From Promethearchaeota archaeon (lineage in GTDB: Archaea > Asgardarchaeota > Lokiarchaeia > Sigyniarchaeales > SOKP01): DNA of 64,000 bases. Shown one piece after another: positions 1 to 27,412 of this stretch. The notes under the pieces are model-generated. The model was not told the DNA's origin and did not search any database. It worked only from the letters and a program-made list of their open reading frames with translations. Both the position numbers and the translations under genes were made by a program. Positions within the stretch are counted from its first letter, which is position 1. Each line of letters starts with the position of its first letter. The stretch covers positions 160,001 to 224,000 of the forward strand of contig JAUVNS010000008.1 of NCBI GenBank assembly GCA_030599585.1, in the 5' to 3' direction.

Positions 1-167
1 GAGCCCTCTAACACTAAAAAAAATACGGCGTAAGGTTCTGGGTGTGGTTCTATTTCAAATCCTGTTTCTAAGGTGACACGATTAATATTAAACATTTTAG
101 ATTTAATAATCGTCTTTAACAGAGGTTCACCTGATAAAAATTTTACATCTGAGAGAAAATCTTTCAT
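1..167 (-). CDS. Cupin-domain protein (partial, runs off window start; not in ORF track)
   Basis: Manual translation from ATG at 167, which overlaps the permease stop as ATGA: MKDFLSDVKFLSGEPLLKTIIKSKMFNINRVTLETGFEIEPHPEPYAVFFLVLEG...; 'LETGFEIEPHPEP...FLVLEG' fits cupin motif 1. Confidence 0.7.
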   Translation of the reverse strand, partial: MKDFLSDVKFLSGEPLLKTIIKSKMFNINRVTLETGFEIEPHPEPYAVFFLVLEG

Positions 168-979
168 TTTTTCATCACTTCCATTTTTTTTTTCATCATC
201 ATCATCTTTTTCTTTTTGCCTGTTTCTGCTAATCTTTTTGGCATTGTTCTTTTATGTAGAATATAACCTAAAATAATCATACCAACGATCCAAATGAATA
301 ACATACCAATATCAAATTGATACGTAAAGTAATTACTCCCACCTACGGAATATCTTAACAAATCCGTTAAAAATGTTATTGGAGAAAGAAATGCTAAAAA
401 CAATAAGTGGGAAGGCATGGTTTGAAGAGGAATAAAAATTCCACTTATAAAAAGTAGAGGGAACTTAATTAAATTCATGATTATCATTACATCTGAAGTC
501 ATATCTGTAGGGTTCGCTGCAATTAACAGACCAAGCGAAGAACCTAAGATTGACATAAGGACTATACCCAAAAATATTAAAAATATCCCAAAAAACGAGG
601 TAAATACAATGGAAAATAGTAGAGCAAAAATAAGCGCTATTATTGATGTAATTATCAATGAATATAGAGATGAGGCAATTATTATCCCTAATAATATTTC
701 CTTTAACGATATGGGAGAGACTAAAATTCGTTCCAATGATTTTTCACGAGTTTCAATAGGCAGCACCACAGGACTAATTGCTGTAGCAGTAAAGAACGAA
801 GTCATAGATATAATTCCAATAAATACTTGATTGAACGAAATTTCTCTGCCAATAACCCAAGAAAGTGTCATAAAGAAAGGAAACATGAGACCAAAAATTA
901 ACACTGGACCTTTTTTGATATAGAGAGAGATATTTTTTTTACTTAATATCCAAATCCTCTGTAAACTATCTTTTATCAT
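164..979 (-). CDS. ABC-2 type transporter permease
   Basis: About 6 hydrophobic segments; 'ETREKSLERILVSPIS' and 'LFISGIFIPLQTMP...SPIT' ABC-2 motifs; directly follows the ATPase gene. Confidence 0.9.
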   Translation of the reverse strand: MIKDSLQRIWILSKKNISLYIKKGPVLIFGLMFPFFMTLSWVIGREISFNQVFIGIISMTSFFTATAISPVVLPIETREKSLERILVSPISLKEILLGIIIASSLYSLIITSIIALIFALLFSIVFTSFFGIFLIFLGIVLMSILGSSLGLLIAANPTDMTSDVMIIMNLIKFPLLFISGIFIPLQTMPSHLLFLAFLSPITFLTDLLRYSVGGSNYFTYQFDIGMLFIWIVGMIILGYILHKRTMPKRLAETGKKKKMMMMKKKMEVMKK

Positions 980-1960
980 TTATTTCCCCTCCCCTCTAGA
1001 ATCTTTATTAATTAGATGGATAAATACCTCTTCTAACGACGTCTCTTCTATTTTTAAATCAGAAATCTTTAAATTATTTTCTTCAGAAAATTTATTTAGT
1101 TTAGTTATATCCTTTAGAGCGTTAGAACTCGAAAAAACAAGATAATCGTTCTTTTCCTTCAAATTCTTAAACATTTTCTTCATCTTATTTTTTAGATCAT
1201 CGGATAAAACGCCATCAATTTTAAATATAATAGAATCTGTAGATTTAAATCGTTCGCGCAGGTTATTAGGACTCTCATCAGCAATTATTTTGCCTCTATT
1301 CATAATTAGAATTCTATCGCAGATAGTTTGCGCTTCTCGTAAGTCGTGAGTAGTGATTAAGATTGTTTTCCCTTCTTTTTTTAATTGAAGAATATAGGTC
1401 CTCATCATCTTAGCGGAAATTGGATCCAAACCGCTTGTAGGTTCGTCAAGAATAAGGATTGGTGGTTCGTGAAGTAATGCTAAACAAAAATTAAGACGTT
1501 GTTTGAGCCCTTTCGATAGTGTTTTTGTTTTAAAATGCCTTTTTTCAATTAATTCAAACTGGTTCAATAATTTTTTAGCTCGGATTTCGATGTCTTCCTT
1601 TGATATACCATAGATTCCACCTGAAAAATTCAAATTTTGCCAAACGGTATAATCTGAAAACGCATTACTAATTTCTGGAACAATTCCAAAATTCATTTTA
1701 TATTTATTTGGATTTTCTGTCATATCCTTTTCAAATATTTCAATTCTTGCCTGGTCATCTAATTTAAAAATACCCGTCAATAATCGAATTGTGGTGGTCT
1801 TTCCCGCACCATTAGGACCAAGGATACCTACAATTTCTCCCTTATTAATAGTAAAGGAAACATTGTCTACAGCAATAAGATCTTCAAATTCTTTTCTAAG
1901 ATTGAAGGCTCTAATCGCACATTTATCTTCTTTATTCGGATTTTGGATTTTTGTTGCCAT
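980..1960 (-). CDS. ABC transporter ATP-binding protein (DrrA/NodI-like exporter)
   Basis: Walker A GPNGAGKTT, signature LSKGLKQR, Walker B ILILDEP, H-loop TTH, C-terminal SLEEVF. Confidence 0.95.
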   Translation of the reverse strand: MATKIQNPNKEDKCAIRAFNLRKEFEDLIAVDNVSFTINKGEIVGILGPNGAGKTTTIRLLTGIFKLDDQARIEIFEKDMTENPNKYKMNFGIVPEISNAFSDYTVWQNLNFSGGIYGISKEDIEIRAKKLLNQFELIEKRHFKTKTLSKGLKQRLNFCLALLHEPPILILDEPTSGLDPISAKMMRTYILQLKKEGKTILITTHDLREAQTICDRILIMNRGKIIADESPNNLRERFKSTDSIIFKIDGVLSDDLKNKMKKMFKNLKEKNDYLVFSSSNALKDITKLNKFSEENNLKISDLKIEETSLEEVFIHLINKDSRGEGK

Positions 1961-2181
1961 GTGAATAACATCCTACAAAATAAAACAATAGCACTTAAAA
2001 ATAATTTTCTTTGAGCATTATAATTACTGCTTTACAGATAAAGCCTATTGTATAAAATGCAGAACAAAATCAATCAATAATACAATTATTTTATAATCAA
2101 AATTTTTCAAGCAGCCATAAAATTATTTTAAATTGAATGAAAATTTAACATTACATAGCTAAATATAATGTGATTTTAACC

Positions 2182-3855
2182 ATGTTTGACAAAGATTATT
2201 TAGAAAAAATCAAAATAGAAAAGGAAAAGTGGGAAGAAAAATTAAAAGAATCAAAAGAGCGCGATGTTAAGTTCGTAACTGATTCTGAAATTCCTATAAA
2301 AAGGATTTATACTCCATTAGATGTTAAGGGGGATTATTTAGATACGGTAAATTTTCCAGGACAAGAACCCTTTACACGAGGAGTTTATCCTAGTATGTAC
2401 CGAGGGCGATTATGGACGATGAGGTTATTCTCCGGGCATGGAACTCCTGAAGAAACTAACTTGCGATGGAAGTACTTGTATGAAAATGGTGAAACAGGTT
2501 TCAGTGCTGCTGTAGATGCCCTCACATTTAACGGTATCGATCCAACGAATCCTGATGGTGCTCCAGAGGTCGGTACGTCTGGTGTACCTCTATATTGCAT
2601 TGATAGTCTTTTTGCTCTAACTGAAGATATACCTATAGATAAAATTAGTGTAGCTTTAGTCGTTGAGCCCTTTACGTGCGCTCCCGTCTGTGCAATGTAT
2701 TTTAACATGGCTAAAATGCGTGGCTATGATTTAAAAAATTTGATGGGAACAACTCAAAACGATATTTTAACGATGACGGTCGGGTACATCCCGTACAAGA
2801 ACAGTCCACCAAACCATTTGTTAAGGGTTGCGTGTGATTTTATTGAATGGACAGTAGCTCAGAAAAACGTTCCTCTTTGGCATCCTATCAATTTTACGGG
2901 ATATAACTACAGAGAGGGAGGCATAGACGCGGTTCAAGAATTAGGTTTCGTATTTGCGAGCGCTTGTTCTCACATTGATAATTTAATCGAGAGAGGTTGG
3001 AAAGCTGATGACTTTGTAGGTAGACTAGCTTTTCATTTAGCCGCTCATAAAGATTTCTTTGAAGAAATAGCCAAATACCGCGCAGCTAGACGAATTTGGT
3101 CTAAGCTCATGAAGGATAAATACGAAGTGAAAAACCCCAAAAATCTTGGTTTTAGATTCCACGTACAAACTGCAGGAAGCTCTTTAACTGCCCAGTTACC
3201 TATGATTAATATCGTTCGCACAGCGATACAAGGGTTAGAGGCTAATTTAGGGGGGTGTCAATCTCTTCATACTAACTCTTACGATGAAGCAATATGCTTA
3301 CCATCGGAACAGGCGGCTCTTGTTGCGTTAAGAACTCAACAAGTGATCGCAGATGAAACTCGAATTACCAATACGATAGATCCCTTGGCGGGGAGCTATT
3401 ATGTCGAATGGTTAACTGATGAAGTCGAGGAAAGAGTATGGAACTACATGGATAAAATTCAAAAAGTAGGGTCCATCGATAAAGCATTGTCTACGGGCTG
3501 GCTCTATAAAGAAATGCGAGACGCTTTCCATAAGAGAAGAACCCGTATGGAGAAAGGGGAAGAAATCATGCTTGGTGTCAATAAATATAACGTACCTTAC
3601 GATACGGTTACCGATGTTTTCAGAACATCAAAAAAAGCTATCGATATCGAAGTAAATAGGATTAATAAATTAAAAGCAAGGAGAGACAACGCAAAACTAG
3701 AGAAAATTTTAGACAAGTTAAGAACTGTATGCGAGAAGGAGGAGAATGTTATGCCCATAATAATGGAAGCTACAAAAGAAGGAGCCACTGTTGGCGAGAT
3801 ATGTGATATTTATAGAGAAATATGGGGCATATGGGAACCACCATTAGCTATATAA
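2182..3855 (+). CDS. B12-dependent acyl-CoA mutase, large (substrate-binding) subunit; methylmalonyl-/isobutyryl-CoA mutase family with non-canonical active site
   Basis: PGQEPFTRGVYPSMYRGRLWTMR, QNDIL, FFEEIAKYRAARRIW, QSLHTNSYDEA, DPLAGSYYVE motifs; ATG at 2182 preferred over GTG 2170. Confidence 0.93.
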   Translation: MFDKDYLEKIKIEKEKWEEKLKESKERDVKFVTDSEIPIKRIYTPLDVKGDYLDTVNFPGQEPFTRGVYPSMYRGRLWTMRLFSGHGTPEETNLRWKYLYENGETGFSAAVDALTFNGIDPTNPDGAPEVGTSGVPLYCIDSLFALTEDIPIDKISVALVVEPFTCAPVCAMYFNMAKMRGYDLKNLMGTTQNDILTMTVGYIPYKNSPPNHLLRVACDFIEWTVAQKNVPLWHPINFTGYNYREGGIDAVQELGFVFASACSHIDNLIERGWKADDFVGRLAFHLAAHKDFFEEIAKYRAARRIWSKLMKDKYEVKNPKNLGFRFHVQTAGSSLTAQLPMINIVRTAIQGLEANLGGCQSLHTNSYDEAICLPSEQAALVALRTQQVIADETRITNTIDPLAGSYYVEWLTDEVEERVWNYMDKIQKVGSIDKALSTGWLYKEMRDAFHKRRTRMEKGEEIMLGVNKYNVPYDTVTDVFRTSKKAIDIEVNRINKLKARRDNAKLEKILDKLRTVCEKEENVMPIIMEATKEGATVGEICDIYREIWGIWEPPLAI

Positions 3856-3869
3856 TTGAGGTGTTAACT

Positions 3870-4268
3870 ATGAGTGATAGAAAAATTAGAGTTTTAATGT
3901 CAAAACCGGGTATTGATGGTCATTGGCGAGGCGGTATCGTAGTGTCCAGAGCATTAAGAGATGCTGGAATGGAACTTATTTTCGGAGGATTTCAGAATGT
4001 CAATCAGATAGTTGAAGCAGCAATTCAAGAAGATATCGATGTTCTTGGCTTATCCATACATAGTGGGGCTCATTTTGCGTATACAAAACAGGTGATCGAT
4101 TTATTAAAAGAAAAAGGTGTTTTCAAGGACATTCTCATTTTAGTAGGTGGGGTTATACCTGCACAAGACTTTCCAAAATTAAAAGAAATAGGCGTAGCTA
4201 ATGTTTATGGTCCTGGTTCAATGACAAGCGATATTGTAGAATTTATACGAGATAATGTAAAGAAATAA
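3870..4268 (+). CDS. Acyl-CoA mutase small (cobalamin-binding) subunit
   Basis: DxHxxG motif (DGHWRG), LGLSIHSGAH, VGGVIP; GAGGTG RBS at 3858-3863 before ATG 3870. Confidence 0.93.
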   Translation: MSDRKIRVLMSKPGIDGHWRGGIVVSRALRDAGMELIFGGFQNVNQIVEAAIQEDIDVLGLSIHSGAHFAYTKQVIDLLKEKGVFKDILILVGGVIPAQDFPKLKEIGVANVYGPGSMTSDIVEFIRDNVKK

Positions 4269-4345
4269 TCTCATATTCATATTCTTTTTATTAATTCTTA
4301 AAAAATAAATCAGCACATTGTAATAATAATCTGAGCTGTAAAAAA

Positions 4346-5584
4346 ATGGTAAAATCTTTTCAAATCCCTTGGGCAGCATGGAGAGAGCCTGATTATTTGG
4401 AATTATCCTTTCCCGATTCCTGGGATGTATCTGCTTGTAGGATGAATGGTGCTGATGGACCTGTTTTAAATGATGATGAAATCAAACATTCGATTTTAAA
4501 TCCGATTGGGACTCAAAGGATATCGGAGTTAGCAAGATGTAAGGAAACTATAGTTATTGTAGTTGATGATATGACAAGAACTACTCCCGTATCAAGAATC
4601 ATTCCTCATGTCCTTGAAGAATTAGATAAAGCAAGTATAAATCTTGATCAAATCACAATATTACTGGCTTTAGGTGCCCACAAGCCAATGAATAGACAAG
4701 ACTGCATTCTTAAACTCGGAAAAGATGTAGTAAATACAATTAACATAGAAAATCATCATCCCTACGAAAACTTAACAAACTTTGGGGAATCCAAGATAGG
4801 CACGCCAATAGACGTTAATTCGACTTATTTGAAATCTGATTTAAAAATTTCTATTGGGGGTGTGATTCCTCATCCATTAGCCGGATTTGGGGGAGGTGCT
4901 AAAAATGTATTACCTGGAGTATGTGGAATTCGAACACTTGAGGCCAATCATTCTGCTGGTATGCGAGGGATTGGTGCGGGGATAGGGCGAATGACGGATA
5001 TTAGAAAGGATATCGAGGATATTGCCGATAAGGTTGGATTAGACTTTTCTATCAATGCAATCTTAACCGAATCAGGAGAAATTGCGGCCATGAGTTCAGG
5101 ACATTTCAGAGACGCCCATAGAAAAGCAATGGAAATAGGGAAAAGGAATTACTGTACTAAAATCACTATTAACAACCAAATTTGCTTCTTCAATCTATTT
5201 CCTGAGGATTCTGAACTAAACCAATCAATTAAGGGATTTAATTTTTTAATGAACGCTCCAAATAACATGCTCGAAAGAAGAGGTAGTATTGTTCTAATGT
5301 CGTCTTCATACGAAGGTCGAGGATATCATAGTCTGATTGCCGAAACAGGAGCTAAACTATATAAAAATATTGGTGATAGTATCGTATGGAAAGCATTTGT
5401 TAAAAAAAGAAAAGTATATTTCTTTTCACCAAATATTAGTGAACCTGAATTGTATCATTTTTATCCAAAGTCCGTGAAACTATATCACGATTGGAACAAT
5501 TTACTAGACGAATTAACCAAAGTCCATGGAGAAACTCCAAAAGCAGCACTCTTTCCGTGTAGCATACAATTAGCTGAAAAATAA
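4346..5584 (+). CDS. LarA-family (nickel-pincer-dependent alpha-hydroxyacid racemase/epimerase, DUF2088) protein
   Basis: DDMTRTTP, ALGAHKPM, PHPLAGFGGGAKNVLPGVCG, EANH motifs. Confidence 0.85.
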   Translation: MVKSFQIPWAAWREPDYLELSFPDSWDVSACRMNGADGPVLNDDEIKHSILNPIGTQRISELARCKETIVIVVDDMTRTTPVSRIIPHVLEELDKASINLDQITILLALGAHKPMNRQDCILKLGKDVVNTINIENHHPYENLTNFGESKIGTPIDVNSTYLKSDLKISIGGVIPHPLAGFGGGAKNVLPGVCGIRTLEANHSAGMRGIGAGIGRMTDIRKDIEDIADKVGLDFSINAILTESGEIAAMSSGHFRDAHRKAMEIGKRNYCTKITINNQICFFNLFPEDSELNQSIKGFNFLMNAPNNMLERRGSIVLMSSSYEGRGYHSLIAETGAKLYKNIGDSIVWKAFVKKRKVYFFSPNISEPELYHFYPKSVKLYHDWNNLLDELTKVHGETPKAALFPCSIQLAEK

Positions 5585-5675
5585 CATTAATTATTCTCTT
5601 TTTGGAGAATTGATTAATAAAAAAATAAAAAAATAATCTTACGATTTTTGGTTCTAATACTAATTTTGTGTTCTT

Positions 5676-7151
5676 CTATCGCTTAACATTCAATTTGTCG
5701 TTGATTCCCGCAATGTCTTTTACAATTTTTTTTCTAAATTCAAGATCGTATTGTGATGTGATGGCAATTTGTTCCATTACTGGGGAACCCCCACCATGAT
5801 AACCTCCCATTTGAGATATTCCTCCTGTTGCGGAACAAAGCATATCTCCAACAAATCTCCAGAATTGTGCAGCATTTTCAGGTGCGATCTTTGGATTTCT
5901 CGTAATGTATTTATAAAGATGATCCTTAACTTCTGGATTCAGAAAATCTCTTTCATGAGGGAAAGTAGCTGGTATACCACCTGAGATATCACATATTATT
6001 TCTGCCTCTCGGTATACATTTTCTCCCGTTAAGCATCTTCCTACATTACAATAAATTGAATTTGGAATATAACTCCCCGGTCCATAAGGAACAAAGCCCA
6101 TACCTGGCACGAATACTTCGGGTTTACCTAGATCCGAAGCTGTATATCCCGCAGCGTAGCCTAGTTCCGTAACCATAATTAATTCCGCTAATTTATGTCT
6201 CACATGGGAAGCTCTTTGAATATTATTGTATTCTGCGGCTAAAGCGGCCGTACCTACTATCAAATCTCCAATAGCAGGCTTACACCCTGAATAGCTGTGT
6301 CGATGAAATAAACCAAATAACAAGGCAAGAACACCACCGTGTTGATGTTCCCCACAAAGAAAAACTCTCTCCCAGGGAACAAAAACATTGTCAAAAATTA
6401 TGTAAGAATCCGTAGCCCCTGGCATAAATCCTCTTTTGAAATGTTCTCTTTCTCTTAGGTTGTGAATTGTAACAACTTGTTTTACGCCTTCATAATCACC
6501 AGGGACTGCAAATGCAACGGCATAATCTTTATCTTCTGGTCTTAGCGCTCTTGTAGGAACAACTAGTATTTCATCGGAGACTGAAGCTTCAGAAATGTGA
6601 ACTTTACATCCATTCACAATAATTCCGTCGCTTCTTTTTTCTACCACATGAACATACATATCTGGGTCTTCTTGATCAGCGGGTCGTTTTATTCGATTAC
6701 CTTTAACGTCTGTTTGAGCACACGCAGCAATTAAATCTTCCTTTTGAAACCGTATCATCCATTTTTTAAAGTTTTCGTGGTAATTAGTCTCTCCTTTGTT
6801 TAATTTATCCGCTTCAAAGCTAACATTATATATTGCGTTAGCTGCGTCACAGCCCATACACCGTTGAATGCAACCGCCAACCTTTTGACATAATCTCCGG
6901 GTCATGTCTTGTTTTTTATGAAGATCGTCCGTACTTTGGTGGATGTGTGTAAATCGATTAATTATTTCACCGGTTAGATGAGATTTAACTTTCATTAAAT
7001 CGCCGTATTCCTCAAACATATCGAAGGTTGTCCCGATCGTGTTAATGCAATTCATTTGTCGTTCGTCTAATCTATCAATCTTTTCGCCGTTGTAGTAGAG
7101 ATTGCTTTTCATTTTACTTAAATCGTTCATATATTCTTCTTTTGTTCTCAT
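5676..7151 (-). CDS. 4-hydroxybutyryl-CoA dehydratase-like FAD/[4Fe-4S] protein (AbfD/HpaB fold)
   Basis: GCIQRCMGCD (Cx3C), AQTDVKGNR, GCKVHIS, FDNVFVPWERVF, HRHSYSGCK (His/Cys cluster ligands), HGGGSP. Confidence 0.88.
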   Translation of the reverse strand: MRTKEEYMNDLSKMKSNLYYNGEKIDRLDERQMNCINTIGTTFDMFEEYGDLMKVKSHLTGEIINRFTHIHQSTDDLHKKQDMTRRLCQKVGGCIQRCMGCDAANAIYNVSFEADKLNKGETNYHENFKKWMIRFQKEDLIAACAQTDVKGNRIKRPADQEDPDMYVHVVEKRSDGIIVNGCKVHISEASVSDEILVVPTRALRPEDKDYAVAFAVPGDYEGVKQVVTIHNLREREHFKRGFMPGATDSYIIFDNVFVPWERVFLCGEHQHGGVLALLFGLFHRHSYSGCKPAIGDLIVGTAALAAEYNNIQRASHVRHKLAELIMVTELGYAAGYTASDLGKPEVFVPGMGFVPYGPGSYIPNSIYCNVGRCLTGENVYREAEIICDISGGIPATFPHERDFLNPEVKDHLYKYITRNPKIAPENAAQFWRFVGDMLCSATGGISQMGGYHGGGSPVMEQIAITSQYDLEFRKKIVKDIAGINDKLNVKR

Positions 7152-7257
7152 TTTTATACCTCTTTTTACGCTTTGATAAATTTGTTTATTTGATTAATCA
7201 TTATTACTTTTATCTATAAATAATTAATACCTTTTTTATGAAAAAGATGATGCAATA

Positions 7258-8463
7258 ATGGATATTTATGATGAAATTTTTAAAATGTGTTCTGCGCATG
7301 GTATAACGTTCTATTCTACTTTACCTTGTTCGCATAATTTAAAATTTATACAAAAACTTGAAGGACTTAATGGAGAAATCTTACAAAATGCAGATAAACC
7401 TTTAATTCACATTCCCCTTGTAAGGGAAGAAAGTGGTGTGTCATTGAGCGCCGGAGCTTATCTTGGGGGTAGAAAAACCGCTATGGTAATTCAAAACCAA
7501 GGCTTAGGGAACATGATTACCCTGTTGCTTTCATTAAATAGCCATCTTAATGGTTCATACAGAATTCCTAATTTATTAATAATAAGTCACCGTGGATTAG
7601 CGAACGAAAAAATCAATGCTCAAAAGCCCGTTGGCTCAAAATCAAAAAATATTCTTGATTTAGTTGGATTTAAACATTGTTCTGTTAAATATATATCAGA
7701 TCTTACAAAGTTTCAAGAATTATTAGAAGAATATGATAAAGGTCAAAATATAGCATTATTAGTAGAACCTGATCATTCTAAACCTCTTTATAGAATTGAA
7801 AGTGAGAAAAATATAACAAGGGATTTCAAAGGAAACACAATTCCAATGAATAAAATCCAAACCACTATGACTAGACATAAAGCGATTTCTGAAATAATAT
7901 TTCAAATAGAGGATGAATTTGTAGTTTCTAATTTAGGTCATCCAAGCAGAGAATTACATAGGATAAAAGATAGAAAGAGAAATTTCTATTTGACATCTTG
8001 TTTAGGTCATTCCTATACCTTATCGCTAGGATTAGCGTTAAGTACAGAGGATTTAGATCAGAAGATTATATGTCTTGAAGGTGATGGAGGATTATTGATG
8101 AATGCTGGGTCTTTATCGATCCTAGCTCATAAAAAACCAAAGAATTTAATTGTAATACTTCTGGATAATGGTGTTTTGGGATCCACCGGAAATACTGAAA
8201 CATATGCTTTAAATGACGTGAATTTAAGCGGTGTAGCACAAGCATTTGGATTTCCAAAATCTAATATAAAAATTATATCAAAAGAAGAAAATTTAGCAGA
8301 AAACTTGAGAAAAGCACTAAAAAACGATGGTCCTTTTTTATTTCATGTTATTATTACAGATGAGTATGAAAGCGTTCCTATTCTGCCATTTTCCGTTATA
8401 GAGATTAAGGAGAGATTCATGAAATCAATTGAGGATGCTAGAGTATCTAATGATCAAATATAA
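7258..8463 (+). CDS. Fused sulfopyruvate/phosphonopyruvate decarboxylase alpha+beta (ComDE-like, ThDP-dependent)
   Basis: N-domain LPCS...VREESGVSLSAGAYLGG...QNQGLGN; C-domain VSNLGHPSRELH...RNFY and ThDP motif GDGGLLMN...LDN. Confidence 0.85.
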   Translation: MDIYDEIFKMCSAHGITFYSTLPCSHNLKFIQKLEGLNGEILQNADKPLIHIPLVREESGVSLSAGAYLGGRKTAMVIQNQGLGNMITLLLSLNSHLNGSYRIPNLLIISHRGLANEKINAQKPVGSKSKNILDLVGFKHCSVKYISDLTKFQELLEEYDKGQNIALLVEPDHSKPLYRIESEKNITRDFKGNTIPMNKIQTTMTRHKAISEIIFQIEDEFVVSNLGHPSRELHRIKDRKRNFYLTSCLGHSYTLSLGLALSTEDLDQKIICLEGDGGLLMNAGSLSILAHKKPKNLIVILLDNGVLGSTGNTETYALNDVNLSGVAQAFGFPKSNIKIISKEENLAENLRKALKNDGPFLFHVIITDEYESVPILPFSVIEIKERFMKSIEDARVSNDQI

Positions 8464-8565
8464 AATTGTTGAAGATTTTGAATTAGCAAGACGAAATACG
8501 CTGAATTCATAAATTTTTTTGAGTAGAATTAATTTATGTTATGATATTATTAACATAAATTTATC

Positions 8566-9774
8566 ATGACTGAAGACAGATTGCAAGTTTATTCTTATCG
8601 ATGGATTCTCTTATTCATCTTTATGTTAGGTAATGTATCACTTCAGATTTTGTGGATTTCTTATGCGACTGTAACACTAGAAGCGGCTGTATATTATAGT
8701 GTAGGTGAATTTGAGATTCTTTTTTTATCGACAATTTTCATGATTACCTACATCCCTGTTTCGTTTATCGCGACTTGGTTTATTAATAAGTTTGGTTTTA
8801 AAATGGGTGTAGGATTAGGAGCTATAATTAATGGCGTTTTTGGCTTTTTAAAAGCTTTAGCTGGACCAAATTATCTTCTAGTTTTATTCTTTCAGATCAT
8901 GATTTCTGTAAGCCAACCGTTTTTCTTAAACAGCGTTTCATTACTATCCGCTAATTGGTTTCCGGAGTCGGAACGCACTAAAGCAACCGGTCTTTCAATA
9001 ATTTCTCAGTTTTTAGGTATCGCTCTTGGTATGGTTCTAACACCAATTTTAGTAGTATTGTACAGTTTTGAAGCGATGATACTTATTTATGGGTTATATG
9101 CTTTAATAATTGGTATAGTGTTTGTCATACTAGCTCGAGATAAACCTCCTACACCACCATCAATAAAGGTTCTTAAAAAAGATGATAAAATAAAAGGAGG
9201 ACTAAATCTACTTTTTTCTAATAAGCAGTTCTGGATACTAATTATTATTATCTTCGTAGGTTTTGGAGCATTTAATATGGTAACAACTTATATCGAGCTT
9301 ATTGTTGCTCCCAGAGGATTAACTTCTATCGAAGCTGGAAATCTTGGTGGATTAATGCTTTTAGGAGGTATAATAGGAGCACAAGTGTTGTCAACATTAG
9401 CAGATAAATTACGGAAAAGAGTATTATTAATAAAAATCTCGCTAATAATTACAGTCACTTCTTTTTTTCTATTATCATTTGCTAACACTACCATTATGTT
9501 ATATGTTTCTGGTATATTATTAGGATTCGGATTATTTTCTGTTGGTCCTGTTTTAATAGAATATGCCGTTGATATTACGGCACCCGTTCCGGAAGCAACT
9601 TCAAACGGGTTGCTTATGGTGATAGGTTCTATCAGTGGAATTATATTTATCTTAGGTTTTGAAGGATTTACTACTCCTTCAGGAGATTATTTCCCTGCTT
9701 TGATCGCATTGTCCATCCTTTCCTTAGTTTCATTTCTTCTCTCCTTCTTTCTTAAAGATCTCAAAATAGATTGA
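8566..9774 (+). CDS. MFS transporter (FLVCR-like)
   Basis: About 12 TM segments; VYSYRW start, WFPESER motif, DKPPTPPS. Confidence 0.88.
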   Translation: MTEDRLQVYSYRWILLFIFMLGNVSLQILWISYATVTLEAAVYYSVGEFEILFLSTIFMITYIPVSFIATWFINKFGFKMGVGLGAIINGVFGFLKALAGPNYLLVLFFQIMISVSQPFFLNSVSLLSANWFPESERTKATGLSIISQFLGIALGMVLTPILVVLYSFEAMILIYGLYALIIGIVFVILARDKPPTPPSIKVLKKDDKIKGGLNLLFSNKQFWILIIIIFVGFGAFNMVTTYIELIVAPRGLTSIEAGNLGGLMLLGGIIGAQVLSTLADKLRKRVLLIKISLIITVTSFFLLSFANTTIMLYVSGILLGFGLFSVGPVLIEYAVDITAPVPEATSNGLLMVIGSISGIIFILGFEGFTTPSGDYFPALIALSILSLVSFLLSFFLKDLKID

Positions 9775-9899
9775 TATCGCATTCTTCATTTTATGCGGTC
9801 CTCTCTAAAGAATTTGTAAGTAAATCTTTATAAACCAATTTCGCATATTTTTACCTTATATCAAGAAAACGATATACGCTTTTTTGGAGGTAATAAAAA

Positions 9900-10100
9900 A
9901 TGAGTTCTTACGGTGAACAAAGAGATAGGGACGATGAGCGCATGCGCAGAGATATATCAGCGATACAAGATGGTATCCAAAGTTCGCACTCATCTGGGAG
10001 GGGTGGATCGGTTAGTAAGAAGAAAAATACAATGATTTGTGTTTCATTCCTCATGATTTTGATAGTCGCAATTGTTGTTGTTGTCCTTATTAATTTATAA
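9900..10100 (+). CDS. Small C-terminally anchored membrane protein, hypothetical
   Basis: GGAGGT RBS upstream; charged N-terminus, KKK, then a ~22-aa hydrophobic segment ending at the C-terminus; U-tract downstream. Confidence 0.65.
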   Translation: MSSYGEQRDRDDERMRRDISAIQDGIQSSHSSGRGGSVSKKKNTMICVSFLMILIVAIVVVVLINL

Positions 10101-10258
10101 TTATGTAAAGATCAGAACTTATCATAATACTTTTTTTTTCTTAAAAACATTTTCAAGCGAAATCCTAAGATTATGTCAAAAACTAAAAAACCAATCTAGT
10201 ATTTTTCTATCTAAGTAATTTATTTCTATAACTAAGAATCTAAGGAAGTCAATTTTTC

Positions 10259-11230
10259 ATGAGGAGTTATGATTTAGGAACATTAATAGCTAATTTTAAG
10301 AAAAAGGACAAAATTGCTTTAGCTAGATTAATTACCATTATCGAGAACGAACCTGAACGGGCACACGAGGTTTTTAAGCATTTTGAAGGAATAAAACACG
10401 AATCTTATATAATTGGACTTACTGGATCTCCTGGAGTGGGAAAAAGTACGTTAACGGGTGCCATAGCTCAAAAAATTTTGGATGAAGGAAAATCTGTAGG
10501 TATTATCTCCGTAGATCCAACGAGTCCTTTTAGTGGAGGGGCTTTTTTAGGAGATAGAGTTAGAATGACTAATATATCCTTACACCCTAATGTTTTTATG
10601 CGTAGTCTTGCTTCAAGAGGTTATAAAGGTGGGATATCAAGAGCAGTTTTCGACATCACAATGCTATATGAAGCTTTTGGAATCGATATAATCATTATTG
10701 AAACGGTGGGAGTTGGACAAGCTGAGTTTGATGTCTACAATTTAGTTTACACAGTTGTAGTTATCTTAGTTCCTGGTTACGGTGATGTTATTCAGATGCA
10801 AAAAGCTGGTATTATCGAGATTGGAGATATCTACGATGTAAACAAAAAAGATTTAGGGGGAGAAGATATAGCCGTACAAATTGAAATGATGCTCGACGAT
10901 ACTATATTTCAGAGTGGATACAGACCACCGGTTGTATTAACTGATGCTATTAAAGGTGAAGGTGTAGATGATTTGCTCCAATACATTTGGGAACATAAAG
11001 AACATATTGAGTTATCTGGTACAATTAAAGAAAAGCAAAAAAATCGGTTTAATTATAAGATAAAAGAACTGGTTTTCACCAAAGTAGAAAAATTAATCTC
11101 AGAAGAAGTTCTCAATAAGAATAAAATTAAGGAAATAGTAAATGACGCTTTGAATAATAGCAGCTTTAGAATTTATGACAAAGTCCACAATCTTTTCGAG
11201 AAACTGAAGTTTAAAATTGAAGGAGAATAA
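10259..11230 (+). CDS. meaB: MeaB/ArgK GTPase chaperone of B12-dependent acyl-CoA mutase
   Basis: ALARLITIIEN, GLTGSPGVGKST, VDPTSPFSGGAFLGDRVRM, IETVGVGQAE, NKKD. Confidence 0.93.
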   Translation: MRSYDLGTLIANFKKKDKIALARLITIIENEPERAHEVFKHFEGIKHESYIIGLTGSPGVGKSTLTGAIAQKILDEGKSVGIISVDPTSPFSGGAFLGDRVRMTNISLHPNVFMRSLASRGYKGGISRAVFDITMLYEAFGIDIIIIETVGVGQAEFDVYNLVYTVVVILVPGYGDVIQMQKAGIIEIGDIYDVNKKDLGGEDIAVQIEMMLDDTIFQSGYRPPVVLTDAIKGEGVDDLLQYIWEHKEHIELSGTIKEKQKNRFNYKIKELVFTKVEKLISEEVLNKNKIKEIVNDALNNSSFRIYDKVHNLFEKLKFKIEGE

Positions 11231-11356
11231 CACATCTTCCTCATTTGGCTCATTTTATTTAGAAAGGTCCCATTGTAACTACCTTATTCTCTCAAGAATT
11301 AAATAACCGTCTTTCAAATTTAGAAGGTAAAACTTATAACACTTTTTATCTAACTC

Positions 11357-12283
11357 GTGACTATGCTCTATAAAAATAAAAGAATCTCTCTCGAAGGGAA
11401 AATGGATGATTGGGGGCCCTTTGGCAAAGATGAGGGGAAATGGTTGATTTTTTCAATTGGAAACCCTGTAGAAGGTCATGGATATGCGCTACCAAGAAAC
11501 ATTGACGATCTACACTCACAACGAATTGCTCATCTTATCTCGTGCAGAACTGGAGGACGATATGTTGGTCATATACCATGGGCAACAGACAATTTCACTT
11601 CAATCGCCAAGGATTGGGCACCAAAATCAATTCCAGTAAAAGAAATAGTAAAAAATATCATATATTTTATAAAATTCCACACTGAAATTTATAAGAAAAT
11701 GGATTTACCGGTTTCGAGAGTTTTTATTTATTCGGGACATGGAGGAAACAATCCCCTTGTTCATCATGCTAAAAAAATACAAGATGCAATGCACTTAGAG
11801 AAACTAATTATATCTACAACGGAAGGAATCGCTGATGATAATATCGACAGGATAATGATAGAATTAGACAAACTATCTATTGAACTCGCAATTAAGGATG
11901 GAAATCCAAGGCAGATAAAAAGGACTTTACTTAAAATATTATTAAGTGCTGCGCATGCGGGGCATTTTGAACATTCACTTGGAGCAGCTTTAGGAGTTTT
12001 GGACGAAGAAAAGCTTAAAATTATGAATGCTGAATTGGAAAGAGATTTTGAATCTGCTCTTAATAAATGGCCTCCAATTGGAGGCTTAAGTGGTTTTTTA
12101 ATAGCAGGTGGAGAATATACAGAAGCTTTAGGGACAAAGGATAAAGATAAATTTGGATTATGGAATTGTTTGAAGCGACTACGCACACTTGATAATGGTA
12201 AAGTAAAAATTTTTAAAGAATTAGGGGAATTGGTTATAAATTTGTTAGTTGAATATTATTCTGAAATAATTTTGAGTAATTAA
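11357..12283 (+). CDS. Creatininase/ArfB-like metal-dependent amidohydrolase (deformylase)
   Basis: EGHGYALPRNIDD, SGHGGN, HAGHFEHS creatininase-family metal motifs. Confidence 0.75.
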   Translation: MTMLYKNKRISLEGKMDDWGPFGKDEGKWLIFSIGNPVEGHGYALPRNIDDLHSQRIAHLISCRTGGRYVGHIPWATDNFTSIAKDWAPKSIPVKEIVKNIIYFIKFHTEIYKKMDLPVSRVFIYSGHGGNNPLVHHAKKIQDAMHLEKLIISTTEGIADDNIDRIMIELDKLSIELAIKDGNPRQIKRTLLKILLSAAHAGHFEHSLGAALGVLDEEKLKIMNAELERDFESALNKWPPIGGLSGFLIAGGEYTEALGTKDKDKFGLWNCLKRLRTLDNGKVKIFKELGELVINLLVEYYSEIILSN

Positions 12284-20194: not shown

Positions 20195-21073
20195 CTATGA
20201 GAGTAATTTTGGAAATCTTTGCTTCATTGATAATTCTTTCTGGATGATTTCATTTAGTAATTCTTCTCTCTCTTTACCAGCAAGTATTTCCAATTTTCTA
20301 ATTTTTAAGGGATCAACTTTTTCTCTCAATACACTAATCTCTTTTATTGTTGGAGGATTTGTCTCTTGAATATTCTTAGGGATGACCAAATCAAACCCAG
20401 TTGATTCTTTAACATCCTCGATATCAACGCCAGGATGAGTTGATGCTAACCTCATACGCTTGGTTTTTTCATCAAAATCCAAATAGGCTAAATTAGAAAT
20501 CATACATTGCGGTCCCGCTCCACCACAAATAGAAGGATTACCATCAGGGAAGCCAACGCCGGAAATAAAATCTAATTTTTCGGTTGGAACAAATGTTCGT
20601 GAATCGTGACGAGGAGTGTACAGAAATGATCCTCGGGCGTAGAACATACTAAAGTCAGCTATCCCAGCACAACCCGGTAATCTTATTTTTGGTTTATTCC
20701 AATCTCCAATACAAATATTATTCGTATTGCCGTATTGATCTATTTGTGCCGGTCTAAAGAACTCAATCGTAGTAAGTTTATCCGAAGGAAGAGACTCTAA
20801 CGTACATTCCCCGGAATTTTGAAAGCGATAAGCTCTAGCGGTATTCATTTCTAAATAGAGCAGAGAGACTTGGCGAGGTTCGAACACAAAAGTATTCCCC
20901 ATAATATAATGATAAATGGCGTTTGGTGCGTGTGTCATTTTTGCTAAAGTAAATGCTGCCCATACGCAGGGAGTTGCAACTCCAACGATCATAACGTCAT
21001 CATCTTGAACTTCTCTAGCCATTAAAACTGTAATCATTTCGTCTACGGTATAATCTTTAGAAGTCTCACCCAT
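20195..21073 (-). CDS. Family I CoA-transferase-fold beta subunit (GctB-like) lacking the catalytic Glu
   Basis: EMITVLMAREV...AKMTHAP, AQIDQYGNTN, RLPGCAG, HPGVDIEDVKESTGF; the position of GctB ESG reads IMG. Confidence 0.88.
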   Translation of the reverse strand: MGETSKDYTVDEMITVLMAREVQDDDVMIVGVATPCVWAAFTLAKMTHAPNAIYHYIMGNTFVFEPRQVSLLYLEMNTARAYRFQNSGECTLESLPSDKLTTIEFFRPAQIDQYGNTNNICIGDWNKPKIRLPGCAGIADFSMFYARGSFLYTPRHDSRTFVPTEKLDFISGVGFPDGNPSICGGAGPQCMISNLAYLDFDEKTKRMRLASTHPGVDIEDVKESTGFDLVIPKNIQETNPPTIKEISVLREKVDPLKIRKLEILAGKEREELLNEIIQKELSMKQRFPKLLS

Positions 21074-24954: not shown

Positions 24955-25830
24955 TTACAATAATATATTTAATATCATTTCTGCGCCGCCAGCATTATCC
25001 AGATATTCAGCGTTCGATTTTACATCAATGAATTTACGCTTATATTCGTTAAAAGGCGTTTTAAGATATTCTTGAATGTGAAGTGCATCGAATGTATAAC
25101 GATCGTAGCACGAAGTGGGATGAGCTCCAAAAGGCACTTTTACGACGGCATTGGTAGTTTGCATTGGTAATTGCGCTTTTCCTTGTAGATATCTAATATC
25201 TTCTGTTTCAAGTAACCTTTCGCAGGTAATAATTGTTTTTTTTGCAGTCTTAGCCATATCGTCATCCATCCAAACTGCTCCCGCTATATTTCCATTGCCA
25301 TATTCATCCGCAAAAGGGACATGTAAAATTGCAACATCTAAGTCTATTTTAGGGATGGCCATAAGTTGAGTGCCTGAACCCAAAGGATCTTCGAACTGTT
25401 TTATATCGTTCCTGACTTTAGGAAAATCAGTACCTATCATCCCTTTTAATGGCATAAATGGAACTTTTAAATACGAGCTTTTCAATCCAAGAGCAATTGA
25501 TGCTTCACTTTCCTCGGAAATACTTACTGAACCTGATTCCACAGCCTTTCTATAATTCGGGGCCATGCCAAATATTTCCATACCAACAAAACAGCTTCTT
25601 ACTTCTGACACGCAGCCCGCACCAATAAGCATATCAATATCTATCCCACCAACAAAAGTACATAGCGATAAACCTTTTTTATTTTGCTTAATCATTTCTT
25701 TACAAGCACTTATTGGTTTTCTCCAAAAAGAAAGCCCTCCAATTCCAACTAAATCACCATCTTGAACATAAGTAGAAATTGCCTCATCTAAGGTCATTAG
25801 TTTACTTTTTTGAATTTTCGATCTCCTCAC
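24955..25830 (-). CDS. Family I CoA-transferase-fold alpha subunit (GctA/IpdA-like)
   Basis: KLMTLDEAI...DGDLVGIGG...RKP, DMLIGAGCV, PFMP...GTD, ADEYGNG, PFGAHPTSC. Confidence 0.9.
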   Translation of the reverse strand: MRRSKIQKSKLMTLDEAISTYVQDGDLVGIGGLSFWRKPISACKEMIKQNKKGLSLCTFVGGIDIDMLIGAGCVSEVRSCFVGMEIFGMAPNYRKAVESGSVSISEESEASIALGLKSSYLKVPFMPLKGMIGTDFPKVRNDIKQFEDPLGSGTQLMAIPKIDLDVAILHVPFADEYGNGNIAGAVWMDDDMAKTAKKTIITCERLLETEDIRYLQGKAQLPMQTTNAVVKVPFGAHPTSCYDRYTFDALHIQEYLKTPFNEYKRKFIDVKSNAEYLDNAGGAEMILNILL

Positions 25831-26905: not shown

Positions 26906-27412
26906 GTGCAAGTTTATTTTGGTAGGGGTAAGGGTAAAACCACTGCAGCCTTAGGACAAGGTTTTCGAGCTACGGGGCATGGATTTAAGGTATATATGAT
27001 TCAATTCATGAAAGGATATCCTCAATATGGAGAAGTAAAAGCCATAGAAAACACTCAGAATTTCGATTTAAAACAGTTTGGCACGCCAGACTTAATAGCA
27101 ACTCCCGGAGAAATTGATTTCGAAGAGGGAAGGAAAGGTATGGAGTTTGCAGAGAAAATAATTATGAGCGATGAATATGACATTGTAATTCTTGATGAAA
27201 TTGGGGTAGCCGTTGAGTATGGGATTGTAAAGATCGAAGATGTATTAAAATTAATTGAAAATAAACCCGAATTTGTCGAACTAATTATAACAGGCGGCCC
27301 TAAGATGCATCCAAAAATCAAGGAACGAGCAGATTTGCTTACTGAAATGAGGATGATCAAACATTACTATTCTTCAAAGGGTATTAAAGCTCGTTTTGGT
27401 ATAGAACATTAA
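26906..27412 (+). CDS. cobO: Cob(I)alamin adenosyltransferase (CobO/BtuR)
   Basis: VYFGRGKGKTTAALG, IQFMKG, ILDEI, ELIITG, ADLLTEM...KH, ARFGIE; true start may lie slightly upstream. Confidence 0.92.
   Translation: MQVYFGRGKGKTTAALGQGFRATGHGFKVYMIQFMKGYPQYGEVKAIENTQNFDLKQFGTPDLIATPGEIDFEEGRKGMEFAEKIIMSDEYDIVILDEIGVAVEYGIVKIEDVLKLIENKPEFVELIITGGPKMHPKIKERADLLTEMRMIKHYYSSKGIKARFGIEH

Follow-up and report, generated by a model that had tools for sequence, protein, structure and literature searches.

To our knowledge, about half a dozen specificities of acyl-CoA mutases are known, and each new one made a pathway or a route for biotechnology accessible. The classes can be told apart by residues of the substrate pocket: methylmalonyl-CoA mutase (MCM) has Tyr89, Arg207, and His244. 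Isobutyryl-CoA mutase (ICM) presumably has Phe89, Gln207, and His244, and 2-hydroxyisobutyryl-CoA mutase (HCM) Ile90, Asp117, and Gln208; these two signatures are taken as general background and from alignments of Protein Data Bank (PDB) entries. Here, we describe a putative adenosylcobalamin (AdoCbl)-dependent acyl-CoA mutase encoded by two genes at positions 2182–4268 of a 64 kb stretch of DNA (called the window here; contig JAUVNS010000008.1) from a Promethearchaeota archaeon. The window is part of a 4.85 Mb Asgard (Lokiarchaeia-type) assembly with a GC content of roughly 33%, and the genome is 100% complete by marker genes.

The best solved sequence relative of the large subunit is the HCM of Aquincola tertiaricarbonis, HcmAB (PDB ID: 4R3U; 442 bits to chain A). 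The two systems have in common the split into two subunits, a MeaB partner, the R-L-A motif in the CoA-binding strand, and the DxHxxG motif in the small subunit. 4R3U is also the best fold match of the AlphaFold model of the large subunit (pLDDT 89), with a TM-score of 0.94 and 38% identity. They differ in the pocket, where Ile90, Asp117, and Gln208 of HcmAB are replaced by Phe, Ala, and Tyr and His245 is replaced by Asn, and in the small subunit, where SxL becomes SxH; they also fall in different halves of the tree. The fold, the contacts to CoA and to the adenosyl group, the DxHxxG and GG motifs for cobalamin, and the chaperone system are as in the MCMs (Propionibacterium shermanii, PDB ID: 1REQ, and human MMUT), but the identity is 32–35%, and Tyr89, Arg207, and His244 are all replaced. 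Phe at the position of Tyr89, the apolar pocket, and the lack of the carboxylate-binding Arg are shared with ICM and IcmF. However, the Gln of ICM is Tyr, Phe, or Cys here, the His is Asn, and the match to IcmF is far weaker (189 bits). The sister mutases from anaerobes, annotated as MCM, also carry Phe89 and Asn244 (in the motif Y-N-Y-R-E) and are 44–48% identical for the members compared, but theirs is mostly Gln88 with Cys, Asn, or Gly at position 207, and at times E-G-D in place of Q-N-D.

We propose, with a probability of roughly 60%, that this locus encodes an intact, functional two-subunit AdoCbl-dependent acyl-CoA mutase that has its own MeaB, represents a distinct subfamily, and would act on a neutral short acyl-CoA. 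The family, the retained cofactor and CoA residues, the separate clade, and the conserved pocket are observed, whereas activity, mechanism, and class of substrate are inferred.

Fold and substrate pocket

The profile match (Table 1) and the predicted model place the large subunit in the MM_CoA_mutase family of TIM barrels. TIGR00641, which describes the subfamily-domain level, is the only NCBIfam model that scores above its cut-off, and NCBIfam offers none specific to this protein. With the MCM equivalog (NF006944), the score is 437 bits, where the cut-off is 876; with the IcmF equivalog, it is 234 bits, where the cut-off is 1500. The open reading frame opens at a GTG at position 2170, and the 557 residues are counted from the ATG at 2182.

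Residue equivalences were derived from HMMER alignments to the solved structures 1REQ, 2XIJ, and 4R3U, the last in chain numbering with the offset of its 11-residue tag. A preliminary description of this DNA, made from the letters alone, had singled out four motifs as signs of a rewritten pocket. All four are present: WTMRLFSGHG (residues 78–87), QNDILTMTVGY (192–202), and FTGYNYRE (238–245) in the large subunit and DGHWRG in the small subunit. The substitutions it had read from them are borne out by the three structures. With respect to MCM, Tyr89 is replaced by Phe, Gln88 by Leu, Phe92 by His, Arg207 by Tyr, and His244 by Asn. The equivalent of Asp117 in HCM is Ala in the alignment to 4R3U. 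The pocket signature in MCM numbering is Leu88, Phe89, Ala117 (HCM position), Tyr207, Tyr243, and Asn244. It matches the MCM and HCM signatures at none of their three positions and the ICM signature at Phe89 only.

The residues that line the CoA site (Tyr75, Arg82, Thr85, Arg87, Thr195, Gln197, and Arg283) and the adenosyl site (Gln330, Asn366, and Glu370) are all retained in the alignments to 1REQ and 2XIJ, and most of them are invariant in a further alignment. We take these contact roles to be as in MCM structures in general. As the CoA- and adenosyl-binding residues are kept, together with DxHxxG and GG of the cobalamin motif, the enzyme is probably active on a CoA thioester.

Conservation was assessed on 25 orthologs with 69–96% identity to the large subunit. 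Among these, 278 of the 557 columns are invariant, and positions 88 (Leu), 89 (Phe), 117 (Ala), 243 (Tyr), and 244 (Asn) show no variation. Position 207 is Tyr in the family to which the DNA belongs and Phe in Freyarchaeota. When the members from Syntrophoarchaeum and Methanospirareceae are included, position 88 can be Leu, Met, or Gln and position 207 Tyr, Phe, or Cys. Judged from this alignment, the pocket substitutions are real and not noise, because five of the positions are fixed and position 207 is limited to Tyr or Phe in 25 orthologs in which only half of the columns are invariant. Two orthologs (G180, contig C202, 552–2252, and G198, contig C35, 5683–7125) contain in-frame stops, two TAA in one of them and one TGA and one TAA in the other, which could mark pseudogenes or assembly errors.

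The small subunit likely starts at the ATG at position 3870, which gives 132 residues as in its orthologs; a longer open reading frame from 3822 would overlap the large subunit. It keeps DxHxxG as DGHWRG and the GG in VGGVIP. The position of SxL reads S-I-H(-S) when aligned to 2yxb and chain C of 4r3u. All small subunits examined that adjoin a large subunit of this subfamily have S-I/M-H in place of SxL and DGHWRG with a Trp after the His ligand. The paralogous small subunits of the same genomes, as well as 2yxb and 4r3u_C, have SxL and DGHDRG. This co-variation may relate to the lower ligand of the cobamide or to the subunit interface. One ortholog (L053) reads GGHFRG and lacks the Asp of DxHxxG.

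Phylogeny, distribution, and paralogs

Trees were calculated with FastTree (139 sequences) and with IQ-TREE (LG+G4, SH-aLRT; 68 sequences). The subfamily is monophyletic with a support of 100 in both (local support in FastTree, SH-aLRT in IQ-TREE). In the IQ-TREE tree, it comprises the Asgard family of this DNA, Freyarchaeota, three copies from Candidatus Syntrophoarchaeum butanivorans, and Methanospirareceae. The nearest full-length representative outside its own 50%-identity cluster is 46% identical. The sister group is large and made up of mutases, all unstudied, that come from Thermodesulfobacteriota, Dehalococcoidia, Peptococcaceae, Syntrophoarchaeum GoM, and Methanolliviera. The two groups jointly form a clade with a support of 97–99 that is marked by Y-N-Y-R-E and is called the Tyr-Asn clade here. 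The opposite half of the tree contains every sequence with an MCM, ICM-like, or HCM-like signature, including both other mutases of the same genome and a representative with the Ile/Asp/Gln signature of HCM (P0143). Placement of the large subunit within a clade of characterised mutases with the same residues, which the preliminary description had named as an outcome that would refute its reading, was not seen in these trees; they cover sequences with MCM, ICM, and HCM signatures but no ethylmalonyl-CoA mutase (ECM), pivalyl-CoA mutase (PCM), RCM, or HCM of the ketone pathway in sulfate reducers. A contig search for named ketone degraders returned 80 loci, all of them ordinary MCMs with at most 50% identity, and a homology search from a 586-residue Methanolliviera mutase reached no named sulfate reducer.

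Since all mutases of the Tyr-Asn clade share Asn244, this residue is a trait of the clade and not of the gene. The exchange of His244 that the preliminary description had stressed is thus present, but it marks a very large group of anaerobe mutases and is not special to this protein.

The distribution in Asgard archaea was determined in a sample of 200 GTDB genomes. Orthologs with at least 78% identity are restricted to the family of this DNA (approximately 33 of 40 genomes). Orthologs with approximately 70% identity (at least 69%) occur in one further family, Freyarchaeota (five of six genomes). The remaining Asgard families yielded matches of 48% identity or less, which are ordinary paralogs. 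Public homologs with 84–91% identity carry the labels of many Asgard phyla at NCBI and are annotated as MCM. We considered a wide conservation across Asgard phyla from these labels (Thor-, Odin-, Hod-, and Hermodarchaeota) and rejected it, as the GTDB-based sampling reduces it to two families. Matches of 47–48% identity in two genomes (G029 and G048) were considered as a sister group and were also rejected on the basis of the copy in G029, a canonical MCM that lies next to an epimerase-like glyoxalase, an acyl-CoA dehydrogenase, and an electron-transfer flavoprotein. Outside Asgard archaea, true orthologs with the same pocket are found in S. butanivorans and in a metagenome-assembled genome of Methanospirareceae (63–68% identity). 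Three paralogs that belong to the subfamily (63–68% identity to the large subunit) are present in the 1.5 Mb assembly of S. butanivorans, each with its own small subunit; their residues at position 207 are Phe, Tyr, and Cys. It also has one ICM-like copy.

The loss of His244, the change of the Leu of SxL to His, the ortholog small subunit that lacks the Asp of DxHxxG, and an ortholog with in-frame stops would fit a catalytically dead protein or one repurposed for binding cobalamin or CoA. We consider this very unlikely. The catalytic, CoA, and adenosyl contacts are otherwise intact, the mutase still has its dedicated MeaB, the sequence is strongly conserved between archaeal phyla, and S. butanivorans keeps three paralogs, each with a small subunit, in a genome of merely 1.5 Mb.

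The genome encodes three PF01642 proteins, and the copy described here has the lowest score (540 bits vs. 737 and 715 bits). The first of the other two is a canonical MCM with Tyr, Arg, and His (RQY..., ...VAR..., GYHMRE). The second is ICM-like with Phe, Gln, and His (RQF..., ...IAQ..., GYHIRE) and has a DGHDRG small subunit and a MeaB of its own. As the third and divergent paralog, the present copy comes with a separate small subunit and MeaB. The coexistence of a canonical MCM and an ICM-like copy argues that it is neither the MCM of the cell nor an ordinary ICM. The preliminary description had read the pocket as that of no MCM and probably of no typical ICM, and the paralogs and the separate, well-supported clade without MCM, ICM, or HCM signatures agree with it.

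An MCM that binds the carboxylate in another way is highly improbable. Public records do annotate these proteins as MCM, and two of the genomes examined that bear the subfamily lack a Tyr/Arg copy: the closed Asgard genome G202 and the S. butanivorans assembly, in which none was detectable with PF01642. However, neither Tyr89 nor Arg207 is present, no basic residue close by takes their place, the score against the MCM equivalog is about half of its cut-off, and a bona fide MCM is present in the same genome.

A second isobutyryl-CoA/butyryl-CoA mutase, redundant with the Phe/Gln/His paralog or regulated differently, is easier to reconcile with Phe89 and the apolar pocket, and its hosts run metabolism of the β-oxidation type. 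The three copies in the butane oxidiser S. butanivorans would also fit, as its butane oxidation is reportedly proposed to pass through butyryl-CoA. Nevertheless, the Gln207 of ICM is replaced by Tyr, Phe, or Cys and His244 by Asn, and the subfamily and the ICM-like group lie in different halves of the tree. Every genome examined that bears the subfamily (the present one, G202, G038, and S. butanivorans) also retains a separate Phe/Gln/His paralog, which argues for a different job. We therefore regard a second ICM as unlikely.

The ICM-like paralog of this genome (contig C50; 1429–4478 of locus L001) has A-F-S-L-H-T in place of the usual A-F-D-L-x-T, with the conserved Asp changed to Ser, as in G202, and the ICM-like copy of S. 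butanivorans reads A-F-H-L at the same motif. The paralog is flanked by a radical-SAM-like gene and by its own small subunit and MeaB.

Gene context and candidate substrates

The order that is conserved across relatives is large subunit, small subunit, and usually MeaB, and nothing else. Orthologs of the MeaB in the window (62–91% identity) follow the mutase pair directly or closely in most related genomes; for this reason, this MeaB is dedicated to the mutase. The MeaB and the CobO named in the preliminary description are both confirmed by profile matches. To take the two as a hint that the enzyme is active, as it did, is reasonable, since this MeaB trails the pair in most relatives. By its family, the CobO-type adenosyltransferase makes AdoCbl and would thereby support the mutase without being specific to it.

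Outside these three genes, the surroundings vary. In another Asgard genus, the three genes are followed by a 161-residue protein, two HGD-D genes, and an FAD/CCG oxidoreductase. Downstream of the locus in Freyarchaeota lie two short-chain dehydrogenase (SDR) genes. A related Tyr-Asn mutase stands at the head of a full β-oxidation operon in a metagenome-assembled genome of Peptococcaceae. In Candidatus Methanolliviera, an operon contains two HGD-D genes, a BcrAD/BadFG activase, a mutase, and a B12 subunit, with two more mutase pairs alongside. This mutase has 586 residues with Leu89, Arg207, and Asn244, and it falls outside the Tyr-Asn clade. The operon was noted before as BadEG plus MCM (PMC6703427). 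By analogy, these contexts hint at catabolism of hydroxyacyl- or branched acyl-CoAs, without converging on one of them. A fixed linkage to HGD-D was considered and rejected as a general feature, since the present genome has 11 HGD-D matches and none of them is near the mutase.

Such contexts raise the question of whether the enzyme is a 2-hydroxyacyl-CoA mutase of the anaerobe type, which would interconvert 2-hydroxyisobutyryl-CoA or 2-hydroxy-2-methylacyl-CoA and a 3-hydroxyacyl-CoA, as sulfate reducers do in their ketone pathway. For Desulfococcus biacutus, the mutase has reportedly been identified as a 2-hydroxyisobutyryl-CoA mutase. Sulfate reducers that degrade ketones have a mutase pair, MeaB, an SDR dehydrogenase, a thiamine diphosphate (TDP) enzyme, and two subunits of the BCR/HGD type that lie in clusters or are induced together (PMC7888143, PMC8084838). 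The HGD-D and FAD/CCG genes behind some Asgard loci and the SDRs of Freyarchaeota resemble this arrangement. The more distant Asn244 mutase in the Methanolliviera operon is accompanied by HGD-D and an activase (PMC6703427), and the closest solved relative is an HCM. Against this, the HCM signature is absent (Ile90 to Phe, Asp117 to Ala, and Gln208 to Tyr), and no polar residue is conserved that could hold the hydroxyl group, as position 207 can be Phe or Cys. HGD-D genes are not linked to the locus in this genome, and their adjacency elsewhere may be chance. A hydroxyacyl-CoA mutase of this type is a possibility that we hold at low odds.

The neutral short acyl-CoA that we prefer is read from the pocket. 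The residues that would hold a carboxylate are replaced by Phe89 and by Tyr, Phe, or Cys at position 207, and Asp117 is missing; the most likely substrate is consequently a neutral short acyl-CoA, predicted to differ from those of the MCM and the ICM-like paralog in the same cell. Position 207 varies between Tyr, Phe, and Cys, and no polar side chain is conserved at the place of the MCM carboxylate or of the HCM hydroxyl group. This favours an apolar substituent on the putative substrate. Our best guess is a short alkyl- or hydroxyalkyl-acyl-CoA. The preliminary description had proposed a substrate that is non-carboxylated and bulkier. The first part is plausible, with no basic residue at 207 in any member of the subfamily. 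The second finds no support, because Phe at 89 and Tyr or Phe at 207 are large aromatic residues that would fill space rather than open it, and there is no sign of a larger pocket.

The conversion that we name first, if tentatively, is that of an alkyl-branched C4–C5 acyl-CoA into its straight-chain isomer and back, which would feed β-oxidation. A hydroxyacyl-CoA of the 2-hydroxy-2-methylacyl or 3-hydroxyacyl type, as for HCM, is conceivable at clearly lower odds. What remains of the probability, a considerable share, falls to some other substrate.

A mechanism can be proposed from the family. The Co–C bond of AdoCbl would break homolytically, and the 5′-deoxyadenosyl radical would take a hydrogen atom from the substrate. 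The carbonyl group of the CoA thioester would then migrate to the adjacent carbon, and the hydrogen atom would be given back. Asn, in place of His, would hydrogen-bond the thioester carbonyl.

Several points weigh against an active mutase for a neutral acyl-CoA. Mutants of His244 in MCM are reported to be strongly impaired, and Asn244 could mean slower or different chemistry. The ICM-like paralog in the same genome weakens the simplest guess of an alkyl isomerase. The gene context beyond the pair and MeaB is too variable for a pathway to be read from it. In the literature, no member of the subfamily and, as far as we found, no member of the Tyr-Asn clade has been characterised. Our search of the acyl-CoA mutase literature for Asgard archaea, Lokiarchaeota, and Syntrophoarchaeum returned generic mentions of MCM and no paper on this clade.

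The subfamily may serve as a so far unassigned isomerase in the carbon metabolism of anaerobic archaea. It might, for example, straighten 2-methyl- or 2-hydroxy-2-methyl-acyl-CoAs for β-oxidation or carry out a natural rearrangement between lactyl-CoA and 3-hydroxypropionyl-CoA. We regard this reading as a long shot. If the former is true, the branched acyl-CoAs would derive from short alkanes activated sub-terminally or from ketones. The latter would be the natural form of a rearrangement obtained so far only by engineering; a lactyl-CoA mutase was recently evolved from HCM (PMC11599936). For the fate of 2-butyl units in Syntrophoarchaeum, an "unknown mutase" has been postulated (PMC9118554), and the three paralogs of S. 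butanivorans are candidates for it. With its CoA site intact, the enzyme is more likely to use a CoA thioester than an alkyl-CoM. A role as an alkyl-CoM mutase was considered and is unlikely, as the CoA-binding residues are preserved and the genome, complete by marker genes, gave no McrA-type match.

The subfamily is coherent, conserved, and cheap to test, and it combines a new pocket with a co-varying signature in the B12 domain. Its hosts are Asgard archaea, the butane-oxidising Syntrophoarchaeum, and a lineage related to ANME-1, whose metabolism is poorly understood. In these genomes, the public label "methylmalonyl-CoA mutase" lumps together at least three enzymes. Reconstructions that lean on the presence of MCM may be mistaken, for instance on propionate metabolism or on the rearrangement of alkylsuccinate in Asgard archaea (PMC8163825). 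This weight is tempered by the fact that metagenomes hold dozens of mutase clades with other pockets that are equally unstudied. Among the representatives of the 50%-identity clusters, dozens of residue combinations occur at positions 89, 117, 207, and 244, most of them without a studied member, which makes for a large unexplored specificity space.

Neighbouring genes in the window

The features of the window are listed in Table 1. An Rfam search of positions 1–12000 showed no cobalamin riboswitch and no other Rfam element.

Table 1. Mutase genes and other features of the window.
Feature	Positions	Strand	Basis
Mutase large (substrate-binding, TIM-barrel) subunit, 557 aa	2182–3855	+	PF01642, 540 bits (profile positions 2–512); TIGR00641, 542 bits
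Small cobalamin-binding subunit, 132 aa	3870–4268	+	PF02310; TIGR00640, 138 bits
LarA-like nickel-pincer racemase	4346–5584	+	Pfam/NCBIfam
AbfD-like 4-hydroxybutyryl-CoA dehydratase	5676–7151	−	Pfam/NCBIfam; best PDB match 1u8v, 326 bits
Fused ComDE-like thiamine pyrophosphate (TPP) 2-oxoacid decarboxylase	7258–8463	+	Pfam/NCBIfam
Major facilitator superfamily (MFS) carboxylate transporter	8566–9774	+	Pfam/NCBIfam
MeaB-type G-protein chaperone	10259–11230	+	PF03308, 256 bits; TIGR00750, 287 bits (exceeds cut-off)
CoA-transferase-fold gene (one of two, 291–292 aa)	20195–21073		PF01144
CoA-transferase-fold gene (one of two, 291–292 aa)	24955–25830		PF01144
CobA/CobO/BtuR-type ATP:corrinoid adenosyltransferase	26906–27412	+	PF02572, 178 bits

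The block from 4346 to 9774, between the small subunit and MeaB, is inserted context and not part of the enzyme. The LarA-like gene and the TPP decarboxylase are missing from both of the 96%-identical relatives examined (L039 and L040) and are therefore a recent insertion. For the same reason, the co-orientation of LarA with the mutase was rejected as a functional clue. In five genomes of this genus, the space between the small subunit and MeaB holds the AbfD-like gene, which points the other way. The LarA-like, AbfD-like, ComDE-like, and MFS genes might together lead from a hydroxy or oxo acid to 4-hydroxybutyryl-CoA and crotonyl-CoA without the mutase. The CoA-transferase-fold gene at 20195 recurs (76–85% identity) within approximately 10 kb of the mutase in many relatives, often beside a gene of the nitroreductase family.

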